A program made the position numbers and the translations under genes. A stretch of DNA of 49,637 bases from Actinomycetes bacterium (GTDB taxonomy: Bacteria; Actinomycetota; Acidimicrobiia; Spongiisociales; SHLN01): positions 1 to 49,637 of the forward strand of contig JAHEJY010000004.1 of NCBI GenBank assembly GCA_024638625.1, given 5' to 3'. Shown piece after piece: positions 7,493 to 49,637 of the stretch; position 1 is the first letter of the stretch; every line of letters begins with the position of its first letter. The notes beneath the pieces are model-generated. The model was not told the DNA's origin. It ran no database searches and saw only the letters and a list, made by a program, of their open reading frames with translations.

Positions 7493-9358
7493 CTACGTGA
7501 TGTCGTGCGTTGTCACGCCCAGGGGATGGTAGAGCGTGTTGCGGAGCACAGGTTCCCGGCCTGCGCCGGCTATCGCACGCGACAGCTCCACAGCCGTCAT
7601 CTCTTCACCATGACTGGCACCGGCCGCTCGTGAGATGTTTTCGTTCATCAACGTTCCACCGAGGTCGTTGCACCCGGCCGCCAACAATCGCTGGGCACCC
7701 CTGACACCGAGCTTCACCCACGAAGCCTGAATATTGTCGATCAAGCCATCGAACGCGATCCGGGCCACGGCGTGTACAAGAACGACTTCGTCCCAGGTGG
7801 GACCCATTCGAGATCTCCCGCGCAAGAAAATCGGAGCACCCATGTGTACGAATGGCAAAGGCACCATTTCCGTGAAGCCACCCGTTCTGGCTTGGATGGT
7901 TCGAATCACCTGGAAATGATTTGCCCAATTCCTGGGGCGATCCATGTGACCGAACATGATGGTCGACGTCGCCCGAATCCCCAACCGGTGGGCCGTTTCC
8001 ATGACGAAGGACCACTGGGAAGTACGGATCTTGTCCGGACACAGTGTCCTTCGAACATCATCATCGAGGATCTCGGCCGCAGTCCCGGGGAGCGTGCCGA
8101 GACCGGCATCCTTGAGACGGGCGAGAAACGGCTCGACGCCGATCCCTAGCGTCTCGGCACCCTGCCAGACCTCCAGGGGCGTGAAACCGTGGATGTGCAT
8201 GCCCGGGATCCGCGCTTTGATCCTCTTGACGACGTCGAGATAGAACTCACCTGTGAAACCGGGATGAATCCCACCCTGCAGCGTCACCTCGGTGGCTCCC
8301 TTGTCCCAGGCCTCCTGGCTCCGATCGACAATTTCCTCGATATCGAGAAGGTAGGGATCACCCCGGAGATTGAGGGACCTGGGGCCCTTGGAGAAAGCAC
8401 AGAAACCACACTTGAAATAGCACTGGTTCGTGTAATTGATATTCCGGTTGACGACGTAGCTGACCTTGTCCCCGTTTCGAACCTGACGAAGTTGATCTGC
8501 CACGTAGGCAGTGGCATCGACATCGTTTCCTCGCGCGCCCAGCAAACGTGTCATCTCCTCAACCGACGGACGGTGCCCATCCAATGAACGTTCGAGGATC
8601 ATCCGGATGTCGGGCGAGGCACCCGATAGTGCGTCCGGTGCAGCTCCCGTGACCCAGCGCTCATCCGACCATTCCAGGGAAATCCGATGCTCAGGTACCG
8701 CCGGTGCCTCCGCTTTGCCGGGTGCCCAGTCGTATCTCGGTCTTGCGGCTCCGGACGCGTCGGTGAGGTGGAGTTGAACCGCAGCCGCTTCGGGGCTGAG
8801 TTGCGAAATGAGCTCGTCGTAGGTGACACCGAGAGGGAAAGCTGTGCGTTCGACCAGCCGACCGTCGAGAGCAGTCCGCAGGGCTCCGATACGCTCGGTG
8901 TCCCAATCTCGCAGCAACAGGTCAGCAGCCCCGGCTGCAACCGCTTCGACCGCTTCATCCACATCGTTCGCATACACCGAGACCCTGGCGGGAATCCCCG
9001 GCATCGAACAGAGAGCCGAAGCGGCCGGGACGCTCGAGCGACCGGTCCTCAAGAAACAAGCCTGGCTCCGTGCGAGCGCATCGAGTACGGCCTCAACCGC
9101 ATCGTCGTCGTGCACAATCGTGATCCGCCATCCCGCAACGCCTGACTCTGCAAGGGCGAGTGCGGCCCCCGGATCCACAACGTATCCCGGGGCCGGATCA
9201 CTCGAGTCGGAGACGACGGCCAGGATTCCTCCCGCCAGCGCCTGAGACACATGCTCGGCACCGGGAAGTTCGACGACAGTGGTCCCCTCTCGTCTGCGGG
9301 TTGCGGCTCCGAGATCGCTGATTCGATCGGCCGGGCGGATGCGAAGAAACGTGATCAT
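7493..9358 (-). CDS. cofH: FO synthase subunit CofH (radical SAM) with ~240-aa N-terminal extension
   Basis: NRNINYTNQCYFKCGFCAFS, LPGTAAEILDD, NIQASWVKLG, NDLGGTLMNENI. Confidence 0.92.
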   Translation of the reverse strand: MITFLRIRPADRISDLGAATRRREGTTVVELPGAEHVSQALAGGILAVVSDSSDPAPGYVVDPGAALALAESGVAGWRITIVHDDDAVEAVLDALARSQACFLRTGRSSVPAASALCSMPGIPARVSVYANDVDEAVEAVAAGAADLLLRDWDTERIGALRTALDGRLVERTAFPLGVTYDELISQLSPEAAAVQLHLTDASGAARPRYDWAPGKAEAPAVPEHRISLEWSDERWVTGAAPDALSGASPDIRMILERSLDGHRPSVEEMTRLLGARGNDVDATAYVADQLRQVRNGDKVSYVVNRNINYTNQCYFKCGFCAFSKGPRSLNLRGDPYLLDIEEIVDRSQEAWDKGATEVTLQGGIHPGFTGEFYLDVVKRIKARIPGMHIHGFTPLEVWQGAETLGIGVEPFLARLKDAGLGTLPGTAAEILDDDVRRTLCPDKIRTSQWSFVMETAHRLGIRATSTIMFGHMDRPRNWANHFQVIRTIQARTGGFTEMVPLPFVHMGAPIFLRGRSRMGPTWDEVVLVHAVARIAFDGLIDNIQASWVKLGVRGAQRLLAAGCNDLGGTLMNENISRAAGASHGEEMTAVELSRAIAGAGREPVLRNTLYHPLGVTTHDIT

Positions 9359-40482: not shown

Positions 40483-41097
40483 TCAATCGATCGTGTCGAG
40501 GATCCGGGCCTTTTGCTGTTTGAATTCTTCGTCGGTCAGGGCTCCTTGCCGATGGAGCTCGGCAAGTTGCGCCAGGCTCGCCACATCTTTGTCGATCCGG
40601 CTTGAAACACCTGACAGGACTTTGGTTCTGTCCTCGCGCACGCGGTATAACTCACTATGGAACTTCTGGGGGTGCGGGATGTTCGACAGCCTGCTTTGAC
40701 CAAGCTCTCCGGCGGACTCGATGACGACATCGCCGAAGCCCATCAGCCTTTCGAACAAGGACTGAGAGAACCCGACATCGTTCACGACCTCGAGAGGTAT
40801 CTCCATGCCCGTACGCGCCAGGATCCCCTTCCGAACTATGAGCCGCTCGCTCGTAAGAACGTACAGCGTGTAGTACCAGCGTGTCACCGGCAAAGCGGCG
40901 AGACCAATCCAGCCTGCGACCAACGCCACGAGCGAAGCCCACCTCGGCCACCCATCAGGTAGCAAGTTCCATACGAGAACCGAAGCAACGATTACGAGGA
41001 TCGTCCAGATAATGGGAATGATGAGAGTCTTCCAGTGAGGCCGGAATGCTCGCTGGATGGTTTCGTCTTCGGTGAGAAAATCGGATGGATACGGCAT
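40483..41097 (-). CDS. Bacterial PH-domain membrane protein with C-terminal SHOCT domain
   Basis: RPHW, two TMs, YVLTSERL..RKG, LAELHRQGALTDEEFKQQKARIL. Confidence 0.9.
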   Translation of the reverse strand: MPYPSDFLTEDETIQRAFRPHWKTLIIPIIWTILVIVASVLVWNLLPDGWPRWASLVALVAGWIGLAALPVTRWYYTLYVLTSERLIVRKGILARTGMEIPLEVVNDVGFSQSLFERLMGFGDVVIESAGELGQSRLSNIPHPQKFHSELYRVREDRTKVLSGVSSRIDKDVASLAQLAELHRQGALTDEEFKQQKARILDTID

Positions 41098-41119: not shown

Positions 41120-42016
41120 TCAATCGGCGGCCGCAGAATTGCGGGACACCACCTGCGAGGTGGGATCCGCCGGAGTTGTCCCGGTATCGTCGGCAAAGGC
41201 GGGACAAATGTCCTGGAACGAGCACCAGTCGCACAAACGGCCCGGTCTCGGGCGGAAGTCGTCGCTCCGCAGCGCCTTGGCGATCGCATCCCAGAGCGCT
41301 CGCACCTGCTTGTCCATCGCATCGAGCTGTTTGTCGTGGATATTGAGTCGATACATCGTCGGGCCGTTGAGATATAACAAACGGACTTCCTTGGGTGTAC
41401 GCCCAAGGCGTTTTCGGATCAGCAGCGCATAGATCTTGAGCGCAAAGAAGGCCGGGAGTGCATACCGCTCCGGCGGAGCCTTGCCAGTCTTGTAGTCCGT
41501 GATGATCAGATCCCCATTCGCATCTTCGTCGATGCGATCCAGAATTCCGCGCACCGCTACTCCCTCGAGTTCCTCGAGCATGTCGTACTCACAGAACATG
41601 GGGTCGATCGATCGTGGATCTTCAAGCGAGAAATAGTTCGCGAGTAGCTCCATACTCTCCAATCCCCACGCTCGCTCATCGTCGAGCGATGCGAACAGGT
41701 CGGGATACTCCTCCATACGAAGCTCTGACCAGGCCTGCCGGAACAGTTCATACAACTGCTCCGGAGATCGATCCGGCGACGGTAGCTGGAAAAGGTTCTC
41801 CAGCGCCAGGTGGGCGGCAGTGCCGCGGGCCTGATACACGGTCGAGGGCTCCGGCAGACGCTCGATGAAGCGGTATTTGAAGAGCTGGGGACATTGCTTG
41901 TAGTCACTCAAGCGGCTGGGAGACACCCGTGGCTCGATGGGCGGCCCACCGGGCGAACCAGAGGGGGTCGGATGAGCGGTGACCGAAGAGGGGGATGGAG
42001 TGGTGAGGGCTGTCAT
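41120..42016 (-). CDS. Stand-alone RecB-family PD-(D/E)XK nuclease with four Cys (probable Fe-S)
   Basis: SPSRL..YKQCP, RGTAAH, GILDRID, ITDYKTGK, LCDWCSFQDICP. Confidence 0.92.
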   Translation of the reverse strand: MTALTTPSPSSVTAHPTPSGSPGGPPIEPRVSPSRLSDYKQCPQLFKYRFIERLPEPSTVYQARGTAAHLALENLFQLPSPDRSPEQLYELFRQAWSELRMEEYPDLFASLDDERAWGLESMELLANYFSLEDPRSIDPMFCEYDMLEELEGVAVRGILDRIDEDANGDLIITDYKTGKAPPERYALPAFFALKIYALLIRKRLGRTPKEVRLLYLNGPTMYRLNIHDKQLDAMDKQVRALWDAIAKALRSDDFRPRPGRLCDWCSFQDICPAFADDTGTTPADPTSQVVSRNSAAAD

Positions 42017-42054
42017 CGGATGCGCCCAAACAGCACGACAGGCTCCTGCCCTTG

Positions 42055-42199
42055 CTTACGTTTCATGGTTCTTACGTTTCATGTTGTTTCTCGGCTGGTT
42101 CGTTCACGACTGGTTCGTTCACGACTGGTTCGTTCACGACTGGTTCGTTCACGACTGGTTCGTTCATGACTGGTTCGTTCATGACTGGTTCGTTCACGG
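42055..42199. repeat. Tandem repeats: 2 x 16-bp-period CTTACGTTTCATG, then 7 x 15-bp CTGGTTCGTTCA(C/T)GA
   Basis: 15-bp units at 42095, 42110 ... 42185; no spacers. Confidence 0.95.
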
Positions 42200-42440
42200 C
42201 TGTTGCCTAGGTTCATCTATACGCACTTTACGCCATCAGAGTGACACGTTTGTAATTCTCCCGCAAGAGGCCGTCGGCGCACGCCCGGTACGCTGCCAAA
42301 ACCACCCGTCGTCTCGTTCCCATCTGGTGGGAACATGATGGAAGCGATATGACGCCACATGTGCGAAAAGTGGCTCTAGATTGCCGAAAATCAGACCCGC
42401 GGGCGTGAGAAATGGGATCAAGAACTCGAAACCAGATGAG

Positions 42441-42516
42441 GCGCGAAAACTATGTCTTGTTCGCGAAATCTGTCGAGCGATCTAGCTTGACTCCCCTGGG
42501 CCGACCCTCGTATGTT
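42441..42516 (+). promoter_or_regulatory. Sigma70-type promoter TTGACT-N18-TATGTT with upstream CGCGAAA direct repeats
   Basis: -35 at 42487-42492, -10 at 42511-42516; gCGCGAAA at 42441 and tCGCGAAA at 42461. Confidence 0.7.
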
Positions 42517-42522
42517 CGCAAA

Positions 42523-42832
42523 GCACTCGCATGTGGACCCCACATCGAGTGCCCCGTCGGAGGTGATGGGGCACCGACCCTGGTCGGTCCGCCAATGCCG
42601 CAGACGGAGTGGGCTTCGAACCGGAGGAATCCGGATGAACCTCCCGCCAAGGTTCATGAGAAGCCGGGCGGCGTCGCCATAGCGGCCGGGCAGGTCTCAG
42701 GACCCCGGGCTGATCTGACGACAAGCGCCAACATGAGCGCCGCAAGGCGCCGGCCCGGATGCATCCTCCGAGGGGGTGTCCGGGGGCAAAACCCCGAGAG
42801 GGCGTTCTTCGGAGCGGTCACTCGGGGTTTTT
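42523..42832 (+). ncRNA. Candidate ~310-nt structured non-coding RNA (RNA-S), family unknown
   Basis: Own promoter, continuous hairpins (42523-42552, 42549-42574, 42635-42657, GCAA-capped 42737-42750, 42754-42784) and a U-tailed terminal hairpin; no convincing ORF. Confidence 0.65.
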
Positions 42833-42834
42833 GC
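42786..42834 (+). terminator. Intrinsic terminator-like hairpin with cUUCGg loop
   Basis: AAAACCCCGAG..GTTC-TTCG-GAGC..CTCGGGGTTTTT. Confidence 0.75.
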
Positions 42835-42928
42835 ATGTCTGGACACATGTGCATGCAAGAAAAAGGGGGTTTGGCGGATTTCACGAGAAACGAAGAACGT
42901 GGCAGCATGGTGTCCATGGATTCACGAC

Positions 42929-44737
42929 ATGACATCTGAGACCGAATGCCAGATCGCCATCATCGGTGCCAACCGCGCCGGGATCGGTGTGGCCACCGAC
43001 GCCTACGAGGCCGGTATCGACAAAATCGCCATCTTCAGCAAGGATCCCCTCGAATTTCGACTTCCGAACGCGCCGCAGGGGGACACCACACTGATGGGAA
43101 CGCCCGACGAGTACATCGGGTCGCCCGTTACACGCCTGGTTCAGCACGACGACCACGTTGAGGTTCACACCGATGATCTGGTGGTAAAAGCCCAGGTTGC
43201 CGTCGTCGCCGCCAGGGCCGGACTGGAATCGGCCCCGCCCCCCTACGAGATCCCGGCGGCCGTTGCTGCCCGGGTACATATGTCCATGCCGGACGATATC
43301 GACATGGATGCCGACATACTCATCATCGGAGTCGGCGAGACGGCAGCTGAATACTGTGAAGATCTCGTCGACTCCGGATACACGTCCGTGGTCCTCAGCC
43401 TGCCGTCAACAGCGTTCGATCGCCTGGCTCCGGCAACACGCGATCGGCTGAGAGAGGTCGAGTCCCGCCTTCAGGCAACCGTGCTCTGGCACGCACATCC
43501 AACCGGGGTCATCGACGCCGGCGGCGTTCCGATGGTCACCTTTGACGACCGCCGAACGCCTGACCTGGTGTTCGACCACGTCATCTACTCGCTGGGTCCG
43601 GGCCAGAAGGCGGGCAGGCTGGAGCGACTGGGAATTGACCTGCAAAGCGATGCAGTCGAGAACCCGTCACTGGTCGTGTTGAGCCAGCTCGATGATGATG
43701 ACACCCCGCATGCCGAGCCGGTCATTTACGTCTCGCCCGGTCACGCCTGGAGGCTCATACACGACACGCATTTTCCCGAGCTGGCGCCTGCACACGATCT
43801 CGAGGCGCGACCTCCTCTCCTCCGATATCAGCTCGCCGAACACCTCCGCCGGGACGCTTACAACGCCACCATCACCTCGTTCGACCGCCGGCATGGGGAT
43901 CTCTGGGTTATCCGAGTCAAGCCCGACACCGGTGGGGTAGAGCATTTTCCCGGCCAGTACACGACTCTTGCCCTCGGATATTGGGAACCACGAATCGACG
44001 GCCTGGATGAACACCTCGAAGAGGCCAAGTTCGAGAAACTCGTGCGCCGTTCGTATTCGATCTCGTATCCGATCCTCGAGGATGATCGATTGGTTCGACC
44101 CGAGGAGATCGATGGTCTGGAGTTCTACATCGTTCTCGTCCGGGCCGAAGGAATGGATCATCTGCCGGAACTGACCCCTCGCCTCGCGCTCAAGCGAGAA
44201 GGCGACCGGATTTTCATGGGTACCAAGGTCACCGGGCGCTACACACTCAAACCGGTCACGGATCCCGAGATGGACGTCATCTTGCTGTCGACAGGAACCG
44301 GCGAGGCGCCGCATAACAACATGATCGCCCAGCTCCTCCGTGATGGGCACACCGGCAAGATCATTTCTGCCTGCACGGTTCGCTACAACGAGGACCTCGC
44401 CTATCTCCATACCCACCGTCGCCTGGAAGAGCTGTATTCCAACTACACGTATCTGCCACTTACCACTCGCGAGCCCGAAACCATCAACAACAAGGTCTAC
44501 ATCCAGGACCTGATCACGAAAGGGCTGCTGTCCGAAGCACTCGGCCACGAACCGACTCCCGAACGTTCACAGTTCTTCCTATGCGGCAACCCGCTGATGA
44601 TCGGGCTCCCCGCTGTCGACGGCGACACCGTAGCCTTCCCCGAATCGATTGGCGTGTGTCAGATTCTGGTCGAGCGGGGCTTCACAATCGCTCACCGCGG
44701 CATCGATGGAAACGTTCACTACGAGGAGTACTGGTAA
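42929..44737 (+). CDS. Ferredoxin--NADP+ reductase fused to an N-terminal degenerate pyridine-nucleotide-disulfide oxidoreductase-like domain
   Basis: C-half has PGQY, VRRSYSI, STGTGEAP, LCGNPLMI, HYEEYW; N-half has IAIIGANRAGI and ILIIGVGETAAE Rossmann-like motifs. Confidence 0.85.
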   Translation: MTSETECQIAIIGANRAGIGVATDAYEAGIDKIAIFSKDPLEFRLPNAPQGDTTLMGTPDEYIGSPVTRLVQHDDHVEVHTDDLVVKAQVAVVAARAGLESAPPPYEIPAAVAARVHMSMPDDIDMDADILIIGVGETAAEYCEDLVDSGYTSVVLSLPSTAFDRLAPATRDRLREVESRLQATVLWHAHPTGVIDAGGVPMVTFDDRRTPDLVFDHVIYSLGPGQKAGRLERLGIDLQSDAVENPSLVVLSQLDDDDTPHAEPVIYVSPGHAWRLIHDTHFPELAPAHDLEARPPLLRYQLAEHLRRDAYNATITSFDRRHGDLWVIRVKPDTGGVEHFPGQYTTLALGYWEPRIDGLDEHLEEAKFEKLVRRSYSISYPILEDDRLVRPEEIDGLEFYIVLVRAEGMDHLPELTPRLALKREGDRIFMGTKVTGRYTLKPVTDPEMDVILLSTGTGEAPHNNMIAQLLRDGHTGKIISACTVRYNEDLAYLHTHRRLEELYSNYTYLPLTTREPETINNKVYIQDLITKGLLSEALGHEPTPERSQFFLCGNPLMIGLPAVDGDTVAFPESIGVCQILVERGFTIAHRGIDGNVHYEEYW

Positions 44738-44739
44738 CC

Positions 44740-45102
44740 ATGGATATTCGTCTAAGCCTGGTCGCGCTCGACTGTCCCGATCCTCTGGCACTCGCCGGGT
44801 TCTATCGCGATCTGACCGGCTGGCCCGTCGGTCATGTGAGCGACGACTGGGTCGAACTGGATGCAGGCGACGGCGTGACCATCGCATGCCAAAAAGTAGA
44901 GGACTTCTCACCGCCGGTGTGGCCCGGGTCCCAGCACCCCCAACAGCTCCACCTGGATTTCGATGTTGACGACCTGGATGAGGGCGAAGCCCATGTACTC
45001 AAAGTTGGGGCCATCAAGACTGATGAACAACCCAAGCCTCAATCCTGGCGTGTGTTTTTGGATCCCGCCGGCCACCCCTTCTGTCTCGTCCTAGCCGATT
45101 AG
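44740..45102 (+). CDS. VOC/glyoxalase family protein
   Basis: LDCPDPLALAGFY, QLHLDF, DPAGHPFCL. Confidence 0.92.
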   Translation: MDIRLSLVALDCPDPLALAGFYRDLTGWPVGHVSDDWVELDAGDGVTIACQKVEDFSPPVWPGSQHPQQLHLDFDVDDLDEGEAHVLKVGAIKTDEQPKPQSWRVFLDPAGHPFCLVLAD

Positions 45103-45128
45103 ACGTGTTATTCAAGGCATGTTATTCA

Positions 45129-45207
45129 TGGCATGCGCAGAGTCTTAGAGCCCCTTTGCGTCAAGTGGAGTTGCGCAGCAACTCCCAAGGAACCCGCAGG
45201 GTTCCCG
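45129..45207 (-). repeat. Second, inverted copy of the ~80-bp double-hairpin element at 33350-33430
   Basis: Minus strand CGGGAACCCTGCGGGTTCCTTGGGAGTTGCTGCGCAACTCCACTTGACGCAAAGGGGCTCTAAGACTCTGCGCATGCCA. Confidence 0.9.
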
Positions 45208-45228
45208 CCGCCGACAACCAACACGCGC

Positions 45229-45283
45229 AAAAACCCCGGGCTGACAGTCATCTCCGAAGAGATGTCCGCCCTCTCGGGGTTCT
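45229..45283 (-). terminator. Intrinsic terminator-like hairpin with cUUCGg loop, homologous to 42786-42834
   Basis: Minus strand AACCCCGAGAGGGCGGACATCTC-TTCG-GAGATGACTGTCAGCCCGGGGTTTTT. Confidence 0.75.
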
Positions 45284-45960
45284 TGCCGGCCCTGCCCACT
45301 CCGGTCCCAACGCTTCGCAGTGGTCCGGTCGTTCACCCGAAGGTGAGCGTCCGGTACTCCGAAGAGCCGGCTCCGCAGCTTTCTGCAGCGCCCTGGCTCC
45401 GTCACCGTTCCTGACTCAACAGGCACCGATTGCTGCCGGTCTCTCGACCAGCCACTCCCGGTTCGGCTCGAGTGCCAAACCCAAAGTCACGTATTCTCGT
45501 CGGTCCTTCCCCGAAGGGTCGGGCCGTCTCGAAGTTTGCAACTCCGGTACCGAAGCAACGTCCGTCCACTGCATCCTGGCTGCGTCGTGCAACGTTTCCG
45601 TCGCTACGCGGCCCTTCAACAACAGCCTTCTGAGGCTCCGGTTGCCTGGAATGGTCCCAAGTCTTGCGACCCGCTTCCATGCCGGGCCGGGAACTTCCTC
45701 GGCTATTCCCGCACCTCCCGATTTTTCCCCTTGCGGTTCAAATTCGTTCGGTAAAAGAGGCCCTGGAAGTGCCCTCGCCTTCCAAAGTCCTGCAGATCCC
45801 TCCGAGTCACCCGTTAAGACAAGCTCTTTGGTCCCTGCCTGACCGGTCATCCGTTGTCGCCTTCCGTTTTACCGGCGTGACACGTCACCGAAGTGGCATG
45901 TCACAAAAGCGACGGGACGACCAAAGGTCGGCCGCTGTCCGGGATCACTCCCGATCAGCG
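45229..45960 (-). ncRNA. Candidate ~730-nt large structured non-coding RNA (RNA-L), family unknown
   Basis: Own promoter and terminator; six CTTCGG and several GNRA-capped stems on the minus strand; nested long-range pairings. Confidence 0.75.
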
Positions 45961-45965
45961 TCAGA

Positions 45966-46040
45966 ACAATACGCCGACCTAACCCCCCGGTCAAACGTCA
46001 CGGCTGTTTAGTTTTCGCGCTCTACAACCTTGTTTCGCGA
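45966..46040 (-). promoter_or_regulatory. Sigma70-type promoter TTGACC-N17-TATTGT with upstream CGCGAAA direct repeats
   Basis: -35 at 45994-45989, -10 at 45971-45966; tCGCGAAA starting 46040 and gCGCGAAA starting 46020. Confidence 0.72.
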
Positions 46041-46096
46041 CCGCCCGGAGTGCCTTTTTATCACTCTTTTCGAATGATAGGTCGGCTCGGAAATCC

Positions 46097-46118
46097 TGTC
46101 ATATCGCACGGCTAGCTT
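46097..46118 (+). promoter_or_regulatory. Possible PafBC/RecA-NDp-like promoter (TGTCAT-N10-TAGCTT) of leaderless adnAB
   Basis: Resembles mycobacterial TGTCGG-N10-TA-N3-T; the -10 ends 7 nt before the ATG at 46126. Confidence 0.4.
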
Positions 46119-46125
46119 CACAACC

Positions 46126-49050
46126 ATGGCGACCATAGAAGTGCATCCCGGGCGCTGGGATGATGCGATTGCCGATACCGACGGACCGCAGATCGTTGTA
46201 GGAGGGCCTGGAACGGGCAAGACCGAATTCCTCGTGAGGCGCGCCTCCTACCTGATCGAGCGTGGCACGGATCCATCGGCAATCGCAATACTCGGCTTCT
46301 CGCGGCGAGGGGCGGCTGGAATTCGTGATCGAATCGAGGCAAGGCTCGATGAGACCACCGCAGGCATTTCAGCATCTACGTATCACTCGCTGGCGATGAG
46401 GATCCTCGAATCGCATGGCAACTCGGCAGGCGAACCACCGGCGTTGCTCACTGCGCCTGAGCAAGTTGCGTTCGTCGCTGATCTTCTAGCCGCAGAAGAT
46501 CCTGCGAACTGGCCTGCCGCCTATCGGCCGATTCTGCAATCGTCGAGATTCGCCCAGGAGGTCACCGACTTCTTGCTGCGCTGCGCCGAGCAGAGAATCG
46601 GGCCAACCGAAGTCGCGGCATTCGAACGCGATGACTGGAAAGGGCTTCCCGGCTTCTTCGAGAACTATCTCACAAGCTTGGAAGAGGCCGGACGCCTTGA
46701 CTACGGATCGCTCATCGTCCAGGCGGTTGACCTTCTCGACGATCCGATCGTGGCGGAGGCGCTGTCGGAGCAGTTTCAATACGTGCTGGCGGACGAATAC
46801 CAGGACACATCCCATGTTCAGGCTCGCTTCCTCCAGGCACTGGCACGGCATCACCGGAATCTCACCGCAGCTGCCGACCCCTATCAATCCGTCTACAGCT
46901 TTCGGGGAACGGATCTCGCGAACGTTGCCCGGTTTCCCGAGGAGTTCAGAGACGCCGACGGTCGGCCGGCGCGGCGGATCGTGTTGCCGACCTCATTCCG
47001 CGTGCCGGGCGAAATCCTGCGTGCTGCCGAATCGTTGACGACGAACCTGAACCTGCCGGGGGCAGCAGGTCCCGTCGAAGGGGTCGCGAGCGCGGGCCGC
47101 GTCGACGCCCACCGGTTCGACCAGGCGACCGAGGAAGCCGAGTGGATAGCTCGAGAAATCGAGCGAACCCACGTCGTTGATGGCACCGCGTATCAGGACA
47201 TCGCCGTGTTTGTGAGAACAAAGAAGCGTTTCATGTCCGAGTTGTCCCGAGCGCTCGAGCGCCGGGGCATCCCACACAATCGGCCGGATTCCCGCCTCGT
47301 CGACCATCCCGCCGTCCGGATATTGTTCGATCTCGTCACGGCCGCAACCGCCACGGGTGCGGATCAGGATCGGGCCCTTCGCCGGCTCGCACTGGGACCA
47401 CTTCTCGGACTTCCGCCAGGCGAGTTTTACCGGATTTCCCACGAGCAAGGCACCCGCGGTTGGATCAACGTGCTCGGTGAGCACAGCCCTGGCGGAGCGG
47501 CCATCGCAGGATTGATCTCGAACCCGGCGTGGGCGACGACCATGTCGGCAGCAGAAGGTCTCTGGCACATGTGGGAATCCCTACCCCAGGTCGTTGACGT
47601 CGCCAACGATCCGCAGAGACAGAACGAGCGTTTGGGTTGGTCCTCCATCAGCCAGGTACTGGGTCGCCAGTTCGAACGTGACGAAACCGTGACGCTGCAG
47701 CAATACCTCGGCTGGACAGAGAAAGACGATTTCGAGGCCGACCCTTTGCTTCGTCATCAATCGAGTCGCGTTCCAGAGGTGACCCTGACCTCCCTTCATC
47801 AAGCCAAGGGTCTCGAATTCGATACCGTCTTCATTGCAGATGCCGTCGAGGGAGTGTTCCCCGATTTGAGAGCGCGAGAATCGCTTCTGGGCTCGCGACA
47901 TCTGTCCTCATCGCTGCCTGCCGATGTTGTCCAATACCGCCGGTTCCGACTTCAGGAAGAAGCCCGGCTGGCATACACAGCCATGACCCGCGCTTCCCGG
48001 CGTGTGATCTGGACAGCGACCTCCGCAGGTGACGACTTCCGGCCCGGGGGCCCCAGCCGGTTTCTCGATCGGCTCGGCATCCCGGTTGATCGTCCGCCAG
48101 ACAGGATGCTGCCGGTTTCGGTGCTCGAAGGAGAGGCCTGGTTGCGGAGAATCGCAGCCGACCCCGGGGCGGGGATTGCTGCGAGATCGGCGGCCATCGA
48201 ACATTTGGCCAGTGGCCAGGCATGGGGCGGTCGGGATCCCCTTCGCATTGCCGGAGTTCTGCGTCGTGGCTCGAATAGGGGGATCACTACCCCAGGCAAG
48301 CTTCGCCTCTCTCCCAGCCAGGCCGACAGCTATGCCCGCTGCCCCCGTCAGTACGCCCTGGAAAGGCGTCTGCGATTCTCGGATGGTCCGACGGTACACC
48401 TCGCCTTGGGAAACGTCGTGCATCAGGTGATTCATCAGACCGATGTACATCACCCTGATCCCGTCGTCGAAGATGCGCTGACAACCCTGGATGATCGTTG
48501 GGACCCGGCCGACTTTGGCGGACCGCCCTGGGCTGACGCCTGGTATCTGCGCGCCCGTCATATGCTCGAAAACCTCTACAAACATCGCAACCGGAATCAT
48601 GAGGTGGTTGAGTCCGAGTACGACGTCACGCTGGATGCCGGTGGAGTGCAGTGGAGTGGTTCAGTCGATCGTATCGAACGTCGCGGTTCGCAACTCTGGA
48701 TCGTCGATTTCAAGACGTCGAAAACGCCCGCCCGGGCAGACGAAGCCGCCCGATCGATCCAGCTTGGCTTCTACGTTCTGGCCACGCAACAAGACCCGGG
48801 TTTGTCGGCGTTGGGAGAAATCACGGGAGCCGAGCTCTGGTATCCAGCCGTCCCGCAGAAGAAGCAACCCTTTGCGACCCGCCCGTTCAACATGTCGTTT
48901 CTTCCCCAGGTTCGCCAGACGATGTCTGAGCTTGCAGCCGATGTCGAGGCGGAGCGCTGGGATCCGGTGCCGGGAGAGGCCTGTCGCCACTGCACCGTGC
49001 GATCGTCGTGCCCCGCGGTTCCGGAAGGCCAGGAGGCCTATGCCGGATGA
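46126..49050 (+). CDS. adnA: AdnA-like UvrD-type helicase plus RecB-type nuclease
   Basis: GGPGTGKT, ADEYQD, DPYQSVYSFRG, HQAKGLEF, YTAMTRA; C-terminal VDRI...VDFKT and CRHC...CP. Confidence 0.88.
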   Translation: MATIEVHPGRWDDAIADTDGPQIVVGGPGTGKTEFLVRRASYLIERGTDPSAIAILGFSRRGAAGIRDRIEARLDETTAGISASTYHSLAMRILESHGNSAGEPPALLTAPEQVAFVADLLAAEDPANWPAAYRPILQSSRFAQEVTDFLLRCAEQRIGPTEVAAFERDDWKGLPGFFENYLTSLEEAGRLDYGSLIVQAVDLLDDPIVAEALSEQFQYVLADEYQDTSHVQARFLQALARHHRNLTAAADPYQSVYSFRGTDLANVARFPEEFRDADGRPARRIVLPTSFRVPGEILRAAESLTTNLNLPGAAGPVEGVASAGRVDAHRFDQATEEAEWIAREIERTHVVDGTAYQDIAVFVRTKKRFMSELSRALERRGIPHNRPDSRLVDHPAVRILFDLVTAATATGADQDRALRRLALGPLLGLPPGEFYRISHEQGTRGWINVLGEHSPGGAAIAGLISNPAWATTMSAAEGLWHMWESLPQVVDVANDPQRQNERLGWSSISQVLGRQFERDETVTLQQYLGWTEKDDFEADPLLRHQSSRVPEVTLTSLHQAKGLEFDTVFIADAVEGVFPDLRARESLLGSRHLSSSLPADVVQYRRFRLQEEARLAYTAMTRASRRVIWTATSAGDDFRPGGPSRFLDRLGIPVDRPPDRMLPVSVLEGEAWLRRIAADPGAGIAARSAAIEHLASGQAWGGRDPLRIAGVLRRGSNRGITTPGKLRLSPSQADSYARCPRQYALERRLRFSDGPTVHLALGNVVHQVIHQTDVHHPDPVVEDALTTLDDRWDPADFGGPPWADAWYLRARHMLENLYKHRNRNHEVVESEYDVTLDAGGVQWSGSVDRIERRGSQLWIVDFKTSKTPARADEAARSIQLGFYVLATQQDPGLSALGEITGAELWYPAVPQKKQPFATRPFNMSFLPQVRQTMSELAADVEAERWDPVPGEACRHCTVRSSCPAVPEGQEAYAG

Positions 49051-49062
49051 ACGGATGAGAAG

Positions 49063-49637
49063 ATGAACATCGACCCAACGCCCGAACAACTCGCCATCAT
49101 GGAATACGACGCCGGAAAACCTCTTCGGGTAGCCGCGGGAGCCGGGACCGGCAAGACTTCGACGATCGCGTTGCGGCTCGAGACACTCATCTCGCAAGGC
49201 GCGGTAGATCCGGAGACCACACTCGGTATCACCTTCACGGTCAAGGCGGCCGAAGAACTCCAGCATCGTTTGATGACACAACTCCACGAGCTGGCCAAGG
49301 ATGGGCGCATGCCACTCGTGACCACCTACCACGGTTTCGCGTTCTCGATCGTCCAGGAGTTCGGCGGATATGTGGGACTCGAACAGCAAACCCGTGTGAT
49401 CACCCCGGGATTCGGCCGACAGCTCCTGCTCGAGACCTTGAGCGAGGGCCAGTACGAGCACCTCGACTTGACACATGTTCGGGGGCGGATTGAAGAGCTG
49501 GTCGGGCTGGGGTCCGAGCTCTCCAATCACCTCTATCGACCACAGGATCTGTTCGCGGAGGTCGATGCGAACGACGACATCGGAGCCCGGCGCCGCGAGC
49601 TGGCGGCAGTTCTGGCCCGGTACGATGAGAAGAAGCG
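49063..49637 (+). CDS. adnB: AdnB-like ATP-dependent helicase (partial; runs off the right end of the window)
   Basis: Manual translation MNIDPTPEQLAI...AGAGTGKTST...GITFTVKAAEEL...TTYHGF; tandem with adnA. Confidence 0.88.
   Translation, partial: MNIDPTPEQLAIMEYDAGKPLRVAAGAGTGKTSTIALRLETLISQGAVDPETTLGITFTVKAAEELQHRLMTQLHELAKDGRMPLVTTYHGFAFSIVQEFGGYVGLEQQTRVITPGFGRQLLLETLSEGQYEHLDLTHVRGRIEELVGLGSELSNHLYRPQDLFAEVDANDDIGARRRELAAVLARYDEKK

Follow-up and report, generated by a model that had tools for sequence, protein, structure and literature searches.

Two predicted structured RNAs beside AdnAB-type nuclease genes belong to an order-wide, apparently undescribed RNA family in Acidimicrobiia

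Positions 1 to 49,637 of contig JAHEJY010000004.1 (GenBank assembly GCA_024638625.1; an Actinomycetes bacterium with the GTDB lineage Bacteria; Actinomycetota; Acidimicrobiia; Spongiisociales; SHLN01) form the 49,637-nucleotide (nt) stretch analysed here, called the window below. Towards its right end two intervals lack a credible gene by the open reading frame (ORF) list and Pfam, one of ~760 nt between a nuclease gene (nuc) and an fpr-like ORF and one of ~1,020 nt between a VOC gene and adnA. Each holds one predicted structured non-coding RNA (ncRNA), RNA-S in the first and RNA-L in the second, and these two RNAs, the family they belong to and its link to nuclease genes are the subject of this report. 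A model that had read the letters of the window without database searches (the original prediction) had described a mirror layout of nuclease, RNA-S, fpr fusion, VOC gene, repeat, RNA-L and adnA-adnB; the ORF list and Pfam give the layout as described, and Tandem Repeats Finder (TRF) finds the repeat as one of two arrays. The features are listed below.

40483-41097, minus strand: gene with bPH_2 and SHOCT domains, the bPH gene below (Pfam PF03703, PF09851)
41120-42016, minus strand: nuc, a stand-alone AdnA/AddB/Cas4-like PD-(D/E)XK nuclease of 298 amino acids (aa) (PF12705, E=1e-37)
42095-42202, no strand: 15-nt tandem repeat, 7.2 copies, between a promoter-like site of nuc and the nuc start (TRF)
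42225-42246, minus strand: RecA-NDp/PafBC-like word TGTCACTC-N8-TAAAGT upstream of nuc (sequence read and four-species comparison)
42442-42516, plus strand: RNA-S promoter module (box 1 42442-42448, box 2 42462-42468, -35 TTGACT 42487-42492, -10 TATGTT 42511-42516)
~42523-42832, plus strand: RNA-S, a predicted 310-nt structured ncRNA (terminator hairpin 42788-42832; terminator covariance model match 42786-42831, 49.3 bits)
42935-44737, plus strand: fpr-like Pyr_redox/NAD_binding (ferredoxin-NADP-reductase-like) fusion (listed ORF from 42776; homologs align from ~42995)
44581-45102, plus strand: Glyoxalase_6 (VOC) gene, convergent with RNA-L (Pfam)
45106-45135, no strand: 14-nt repeat, 2.1 copies (TRF)
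~45959-45229, minus strand: RNA-L, a predicted 731-nt structured ncRNA (terminator hairpin 45229-45281; terminator covariance model match 45230-45285, 42.1 bits)
45966-46039, minus strand: RNA-L promoter module (box 1 46039-46033, box 2 46019-46013, -35 TTGACC 45994-45989, -10 TATTGT 45971-45966)
46097-46118, plus strand: RecA-NDp/PafBC-like word TGTCATAT-N8-TAGCTT, 7 nt before the adnA ATG (sequence read; recovered independently in a scan of the window's own genome)
46126-49050, plus strand: adnA-like helicase-nuclease gene (UvrD-helicase, UvrD_C and PDDEXK_1 domains)
49063-49635, plus strand: adnB-like helicase gene, N-terminal part, running past the window end (UvrD-helicase domain)

The ends of both RNAs are predicted from promoter and terminator positions alone. 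A consensus promoter scan gave TTGACT-18-TATGTT at 42487-42516 on the plus strand and TTGACC-17-TATTGT at 45994-45966 on the minus strand, and a long GC hairpin with a run of T follows the promoter after 310 nt in RNA-S and 731 nt in RNA-L. Both loci are conserved and syntenic in all three other species of the genus (3/3). When the four species are aligned, promoter boxes and terminator do not vary, and the bodies between them have many indels whose length is not divisible by three (sizes in the RNA alignments are 1, 2, 4, 5, 7, 8, 14, 17 and 26 nt). Variable columns are spread over the codon phases as 61/56/56 in RNA-S (p=0.84) and 95/94/96 in RNA-L (p=0.98), compared with 159/99/432 in the fpr-like gene (p=3e-60), and RNA-S and RNA-L are non-coding because they combine this lack of codon periodicity with frame-breaking indels. 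Nucleotide identity to the two closer species is 88% and 85% for RNA-S, 81% and 82% for RNA-L and 75% and 74% for the fpr-like gene; 41% of the columns vary in RNA-S and 38% in RNA-L, whereas 76% of third codon positions vary in the fpr-like gene.

The RNA bodies are thus non-coding and under purifying selection, and they fold far better than shuffles. Single-sequence folding gave z-scores of -5.3 (RNA-S) and -8.8 (RNA-L), and alignment folding against column shuffles gave -4.7 (0/100 shuffles as low) and -11.9 (0/40), respectively. Base pairs with two-sided changes number 21 in RNA-L, against a mean of 10.6 and a maximum of 17 in 40 shuffles; RNA-L also holds six copies of CTTCGG where 0.42 are expected and eight of cGNRAg where 1.8 are expected. 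By these folds and their presence throughout the genus, the two large ncRNAs of the original prediction are real, structured and conserved loci. No RNA run containing the stretch was listed, and three metatranscriptome contig sets from the same study contained a single 35-nt piece at less than 90% identity, which is uninformative either way.

RNA-S and RNA-L are related ncRNA genes with one promoter architecture and one terminator. Their common promoter reads CGCGAA-N14-CGCGAA-N19-TTGAC(T/C)-N17/18-TAT(G/T)(T/G)T, and theirs are the only two box modules followed by a promoter in the 2.8-Mb assembly. The terminator word AACCCCGAGAGGGCG occurs exactly twice in the genome, once per RNA, and matches with two mismatches stay at control level. 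The promoter boxes and the 3' hairpin that the two RNAs had been said to share are confirmed in this way, the boxes as a module of fixed spacing before both RNAs and the hairpin as a word found only in them. Of the proposed common 5' motif the architecture stands, in that each RNA has a two-tier hairpin at its predicted start, whereas the sequence of that hairpin is not shared. Since they have one promoter architecture in common, RNA-S and RNA-L are very probably co-regulated. Pairwise alignment detects no similarity between the two bodies, only the promoter boxes and the terminator being alignable, and in an all-against-all BLAST of 62 bodies from the family described below the two RNAs fall into separate four-member clusters. 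The idea of a paralogous pair or a two-part RNA complex therefore holds as far as the two are related paralogs, whereas a complex is unsupported.

One further pair of family-like CGCGAAA boxes, the only other one in the genome, lies on contig C154 at ~8945-8971 on the minus strand with a spacing of 15 nt. It adjoins TTGTGCACA and TGTGGAAA, which are DnaA-box-like words, and the region may be oriC; if it is, a box-binding factor might also act at the origin.

The two transcription signals lead to a family that extends far beyond the genus. Applied to 401 genomes of the class, the strict terminator pattern was found in four more genomes of the same order, with no control matches, and upstream of all four come both boxes, a promoter and an RNA that is rich in hairpins but unrelated in sequence. 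A search for the terminator word plus a U-tract in one genome per species (185,579) returned 89 stretches, and the 80 listed loci among them are nearly all titled Acidimicrobiia, Acidimicrobiaceae, Spongiisociaceae or unclassified Actinomycetota metagenome-assembled genomes. Four of the 80 have no linked gene of the kind discussed below: three titled Halomonas, Oscillospiraceae and 'delta proteobacterium', which look like chance, and one locus of 1470 nt (L035). The full promoter module stands at most 1300 nt upstream of 59 of the 89 terminator matches and a looser form upstream of 13; the remaining 17 have none, several of them sitting at contig ends. Among 71 genomes of the order with a completeness of 95% or more, 57 contain the promoter pattern itself (against two control matches); broken down by family, it occurs in 1/1 (f1), 13/13 (f2), 12/13 (f4), 2/2 (f6), 8/8 (f7), 12/13 (f10), 2/12 (f11, which has a variant -35) and 6/8 (f12). 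In a phylum-wide sample its occurrence outside the order was about the control rate, as single copies without an A-tract, which we treat as chance. In the samples searched, the family is order-wide and restricted to one order.

The geometry of the units is tightly kept. Of 62 non-redundant units of 142-731 nt, 54 have a spacer of 14 nt between box 1 and box 2 and the other 8 one of 15 nt; 58 have a 19-nt spacer between box 2 and the -35 element, and the -35 and -10 elements are separated by 17 nt (38 units) or 18 nt (24 units). In the consensus, the direct CGCGAAA(A) boxes have their centres near -78 and -58, at a distance of 20-21 nt, and are followed by a TTGAC/TTGCA -35 and a TAnnTT -10. 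The terminator is built of CCCCGAG/CUCGGGG with an A bulge, GGGC/GCU(C/U), an internal loop of purines and a stem of 3 bp that ends in a UUCG-type loop; as expected of a rho-independent terminator, a hairpin of -18 to -29 kcal/mol is followed by 3-6 T in 62/62 units. Of its cells 96.5% are paired and all three pairs of the apical stem covary, with 27 two-sided cells in that stem compared with 8.7 in shuffles (0/500 shuffles as high). A covariance model of the terminator gave strong matches in 42 of 44 same-order genomes (best E 4e-9 to 3e-19), and in other orders of the class matches in 11 of 106 genomes, all weak, at most 34 bits. Because this model was built from sequences with the strict terminator word, matches at those same loci are circular, and the new information lies in its matches on variants (for example in family f4) and in the lack of strong matches outside the order.

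Seen against this background, the two-RNA system of the original prediction is a real pair, but one that is the local form of a larger family, whose members number 1-7 per genome and vary greatly in their bodies. At least two promoter copies occur on one contig and strand in 33 genomes. Arrays of 3-6 near-identical tandem units were also observed (G422:C7:121707-128174, G426:C9:168878-170335 and G018:C104:109440-110593), and their near-identity points to recent local amplification.

Between the invariant ends the bodies diverge quickly. The BLAST clusters of the 62 bodies have 15, 15, 12, 4, 4, 4 and 3 members, with singletons besides, which corresponds to about genus-to-family level, and the RNA-S and RNA-L bodies are confined to the four genomes of the window's genus. 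BLASTN of these bodies beyond the genus produced short matches in G005 and G007 and one in G037, which we rejected as chance; those in G005 and G007 presumably lie inside ribosomal-protein genes, judging by eye. The smallest units (142 nt) are made of four hairpins: that at the 5' end, which has a GNRA loop as well as an internal loop, one capped by UUCG, one with a conserved GGCCCGCUU loop, and the terminator; larger units differ by additional hairpins. Minimum free energy and alignment folds of RNA-S, RNA-L and 13 other units predict chains of hairpins or branched domains, and tetraloop words (UUCG, GNRA) have a median density of 21 per kb among the units versus ~3 per kb genome-wide. The shortest units of different families (L069, L071 and L106, all 142 nt, and L173, L184 and L186) have a common loop, GG(G/A)GCCCGCUU; it is the only body element seen to be conserved past family level and does not occur in RNA-S or RNA-L.

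The Rfam 15 models gave no match at gathering score in the whole window or in 20 related loci (118,830 nt); at E<=10 the sole match in the window is nhaA-II (E=5.9), inside the fpr-like gene. In the literature on Acidimicrobiia and Acidimicrobiales we found no description of such RNAs, the species tables of PMC9130861, which could list Acidimicrobiia, being outside that search. RNA-S and RNA-L apparently belong to an undescribed RNA family.

The link to nucleases, which the original prediction had called adjacency only, can now be stated as conserved synteny across the order. Window proteins were compared by TBLASTN with loci that had been selected by RNA signals alone, and homologous RNAs were not found scattered over unrelated gene contexts: of the 80 terminator-found loci, 65 contain nuc, 41 contain adnA and 44 contain the bPH gene, which lies downstream on the RNA strand in 43 of those 44. 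A strict promoter module is present in 93 of 114 loci, and nuc is divergent from it in 79 of these 93; the gap between nuc and the module is 33-431 nt in 71 of the 79 and ~1.3 kb in the other 8, and in the rest of the module loci the nuc start lies outside the locus (13) or nuc is not divergent (1). The nuc orthologs beside RNA units are 54-87% identical, and the arrangement of RNA and nuc spans eight families. The usual order is adnB, adnA and nuc in one direction, then the RNA unit or units in the other, followed on the RNA strand by the bPH gene. Only in the four species of the window's genus is this order rearranged, with nuc and adnAB apart, each divergent from its own RNA unit, and with the fpr-like and VOC genes between the two RNA units (the fpr-like gene in all four genomes). 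As a system, the mirror layout is therefore real here, whereas both it and the adjacency of RNA-L to adnA are particular to four congeneric species.

Both nuclease domains carry the 1+3 cysteine pattern that had been noticed from the letters, located at C42 and C262-X2-C265-X5-C271 in nuc and at C739 and C953-X2-C956-X5-C962 in AdnA. The PF12705 matches are almost equally strong (E=1e-37 for nuc, 4e-38 for the AdnA C-terminus), so that nuc and the C-terminus of AdnA both have what defines the AddB/AdnA/Cas4 type by sequence, a PD-(D/E)XK domain with an N-terminal Cys and a C-terminal CX2CX5C; Fe-S binding of the two is predicted from this pattern. The NCBIfam cas4 and addB models score under their cut-offs, and among PDB sequences nuc is matched best by 6ppu and 7sjr, which are AdnA nuclease domains.

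The nuclease genes also carry a DNA-damage type promoter word. The pattern TGTC-N4-N7-9-TANNNT precedes nuc in 64 of 87 distinct upstream regions, typically as GTGTCACnc-N8-TAtAGT ~7 nt before the ATG, and nuc mRNA is probably leaderless in most relatives because of that short distance; the same holds for adnA mRNA in the window, where the word ends 7 nt before the ATG. The RecA-NDp consensus associated with Gamulin (2004) reportedly has a TGTC word ~8 nt upstream of a TANNNT -10. In another family, three genomes of 7.5-9.2 Mb have TGTC(G/A)GTGGCGGG(C/T)CGTA(T/A/G)GGT before nuc, which fits this consensus. In the window the nuc word lies ~200 nt upstream of the start, within a 37-nt block conserved in four species, and the leader between them contains species-specific repeats (15 nt x7 in the window, ~20 nt x5 in L107, other units in L087 and L042). 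These repeats look like a hypervariable minisatellite within the leader (42017-42246, ~200 nt); in the window the repeat array can be read from an ATG at 42216 as a 44-codon ORF (MNLGNS, then RERTS/HERTS repeats), probably not a real gene.

A scan of the window's own genome with the promoter word gave 16 matches against 7 in the reversed control, and 10 of the matches stand before an ORF, in five of these a DNA-repair gene. Besides adnA, the word precedes the following leaderless TGTC-N12-TANNNT genes:

C110:9625-13968: Lhr
C198:42083-44083: UvrB
C183:1650-3008: RadA-like ATPase
C228:12692-13405: RNase HII
C179:601-1878: DUF222 protein

On the strength of these words, a PafBC-type DNA-damage regulon can be outlined here, and the genome has two ORFs with a WYL domain. 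Mycobacterial adnA and lhr require PafBC, an activator with a WYL domain that works through RecA-NDp, as reported in PMC8682763, PMC6789036 and PMC8223512. The locus resembles that regulon in that nuc and adnA carry its word and that adnA, and nuc in most relatives, would be leaderless. It differs at the RNA promoters, where the TGTC-N12-TANNNT word is absent and a TTGAC/TTGCA -35 with CGCGAAA boxes stands instead; the RNAs are neighbours of the regulon, and membership is not implied.

Taken together, we read these loci as an order-wide family of independently transcribed, stable, co-regulated, protein-binding structured ncRNAs, and give this general reading a probability of roughly 0.6. A unit would begin with a dedicated promoter made of two boxes and near-consensus sigma-A-type -35 and -10 elements, and its transcript would open directly with a two-tier hairpin that carries a GNRA-type loop. 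There would follow one to more than ten very stable, fast-evolving hairpins, mostly with cUUCGg or cGNRAg loops, through whose gain and loss the body changes length, and finally the sequence-conserved three-tier terminator with its run of 3-6 U. In the window, one box-binding factor may switch both RNAs on together, and the RNAs may be long-lived because both ends are protected. They would act in trans by binding a protein, as a sponge or a scaffold, rather than by base-pairing. Retention beside genes for double-strand-break (DSB) resection suggests a functional or regulatory tie to the DNA-damage response; as in the original prediction, which had named DNA-end processing, stress or stationary phase, we infer such a tie. 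A more specific version, which we offer tentatively and regard as improbable, is that the RNAs are dedicated partners of the DSB response, as stable decoys or scaffolds rich in hairpins that bind nuc, AdnAB or the nucleic-acid-sensing WYL domain of the PafBC-type activator and set the threshold or the shut-off of resection and of the RecA-independent damage regulon; the box-binding factor might then couple RNA synthesis to growth state. We know of no precedent for an RNA layer in bacterial DSB-repair control.

Several observations weigh against the general reading. The partner protein and the box-binding factor are both postulated, and the boxes might not be operators at all but phased A-tracts or elements of the UP type. 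Bodies so different between families fit poorly with one conserved sequence-specific partner. Only four related sequences are available per RNA body, and in RNA-S the 10 pairs with two-sided changes are no more than some shuffles give (mean 7.3, maximum 13). Where the transcripts end, how abundant they are and how stable is predicted from sequence. Because the genomes are kin, raw linkage counts overstate the number of independent events, and gene order kept among kin is weaker evidence than those counts suggest. Orthologs of nuc are widespread in the phylum, with 33 of 61 sampled genomes having one (a tally partly on unpublished genomes), and the six loci read outside the order show no boxes or divergent RNA upstream of nuc; the RNA is therefore not an obligate partner of this nuclease family.

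Other explanations account for part of the same evidence. The RNAs might do in this order what 6S or Ms1 does elsewhere, being abundant in stationary phase and binding RNA polymerase (holoenzyme or core) so as to store or sequester it, which we consider doubtful. They would share with Ms1 of mycobacteria and Streptomyces, as described in PMC4191392 and PMC9130861, weak sequence conservation with strong synteny, a stand-alone gene, a strong sigma-A-type promoter and, for RNA-S, a length of ~300 nt. The niche also looks unfilled, since Acidimicrobiia appear nowhere in the main text of the Ms1 survey (PMC9130861), and the 6S model RF00013 gave no match in the window's own genome (E<=1) and 0/31 in order genomes at least 97% complete, with a sensitivity limited to 5 of 14 control genomes. 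The predicted folds, however, are chains of local hairpins or multi-branched domains and no central-bubble rod, the units vary from 142 to 731 nt and from 1 to 7 copies per genome, and the two-box module and signature terminator are unique to this family. According to PMC9130861, Ms1 is flanked by an oxidoreductase and a gene for a HAD-IB hydrolase or 'inhibition of morphological differentiation' protein, whereas the order-level flanks here are nuc, adnAB and the bPH gene; an oxidoreductase does follow RNA-S in the four congeneric genomes, an arrangement not seen beside units elsewhere. It is also conceivable, and in our view unlikely, that the transcript is secondary and that divergent transcription or the box factor acts in cis on the nuc or adnA promoter through supercoiling, competition or a shared operator. 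In favour of it are the divergent arrangement in 79 of 93 loci, the 14 loci in which box 1 is only 33-46 nt from the nuc start and hence abuts the TGTC word, and the window's genus, where the separated nuc and adnAB each face their own divergent RNA unit. Such coupling sits badly with a spacing between box and nuc that varies over 33-431 nt and reaches ~1.3 kb in 8 loci, with second and further tandem units that face no repair promoter, and with bodies under purifying selection, RNA-L keeping its pairing through two-sided changes; the conserved terminator and 5' hairpin suggest that the RNA product matters.

That the RNAs are long cis-regulatory leaders, riboswitches or attenuators of a same-strand downstream gene (bPH or fpr-like), is very unlikely, even though 17 of 80 loci have a same-strand bPH gene that starts at most 330 nt past the terminator and the fpr-like gene starts ~100-160 nt after the end of RNA-S. 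RNA-L has no downstream gene on its strand and is convergent with the VOC gene, downstream genes vary between genera, and of the 43 loci that have the bPH gene downstream on the same strand, 26 have it at a distance above 400 nt; moreover, the terminator is invariant at -18 to -29 kcal/mol with no evident competing antiterminator, and each tandem unit has its own promoter. Least of all do we expect decayed or unrecognised coding genes, or dispersed repeats or mobile elements, that have no RNA function. ORFs of up to 245 aa do cross RNA-L and one of 175 aa overlaps RNA-S, but they have no Pfam match, no codon periodicity and frame-breaking indels, on which grounds a coding origin was rejected. 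A dispersed repeat or mobile element was rejected because each module is found at this one locus per genome, and the order-wide conservation of promoter and terminator geometry speaks against both ideas.

Among known RNAs, the sponge RNAs CsrB, RsmY and RsmZ are paralogous, present in several copies and variable in hairpin number, with a conserved upstream activating sequence that serves one dedicated regulator. The present family is like them in architecture only, with paralogs, variable hairpins, fast-evolving bodies, an upstream element, a rho-independent terminator and several copies. It differs in its ultra-stable UUCG and GNRA loops, whose words are the only ones seen enriched, and no repeated GGA-type single-stranded motif was seen, no formal motif search having been made; to our knowledge, no CsrA-type partner is known in this lineage. 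With OLE, ROOL, GOLLD, raiA and HEARO it shares length (731 nt in RNA-L), a high degree of predicted structure, richness in GNRA loops and restriction to a lineage. Those RNAs have a conserved core fold, whereas conservation across families is limited here to the promoter, the terminator and the way the 5' hairpin is built, and their covariance models have no match in the window or the 20 related loci.

If the general reading is true, ncRNAs of up to 730 nt form a so far unrecognised class in an order of actinobacteria that is common in soil, sediment, sponge and water habitats. Their evolutionary signature is unusual, in that promoter and terminator stay invariant while the hairpin body between them is remodelled rapidly. 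The case also shows that ncRNA families which searches by body sequence or covariance model miss can be reached through conserved transcription signals, and the two modules offer a simple annotation route for these genes in hundreds of metagenome-assembled genomes. With the units locked to the AdnAB/nuclease locus, a reader of the CGCGAAA boxes and a role of the RNAs in the RecA-independent (PafBC-type) response become testable, and if the RNAs are decoys or scaffolds they would form an RNA layer of bacterial DSB-repair control.

A minor feature lies past the RNA-L terminator and the VOC stop, where positions 45106-45205 contain the 14-nt direct repeat (2.1 copies) and two short GC hairpins; this may be the terminator of the VOC gene.

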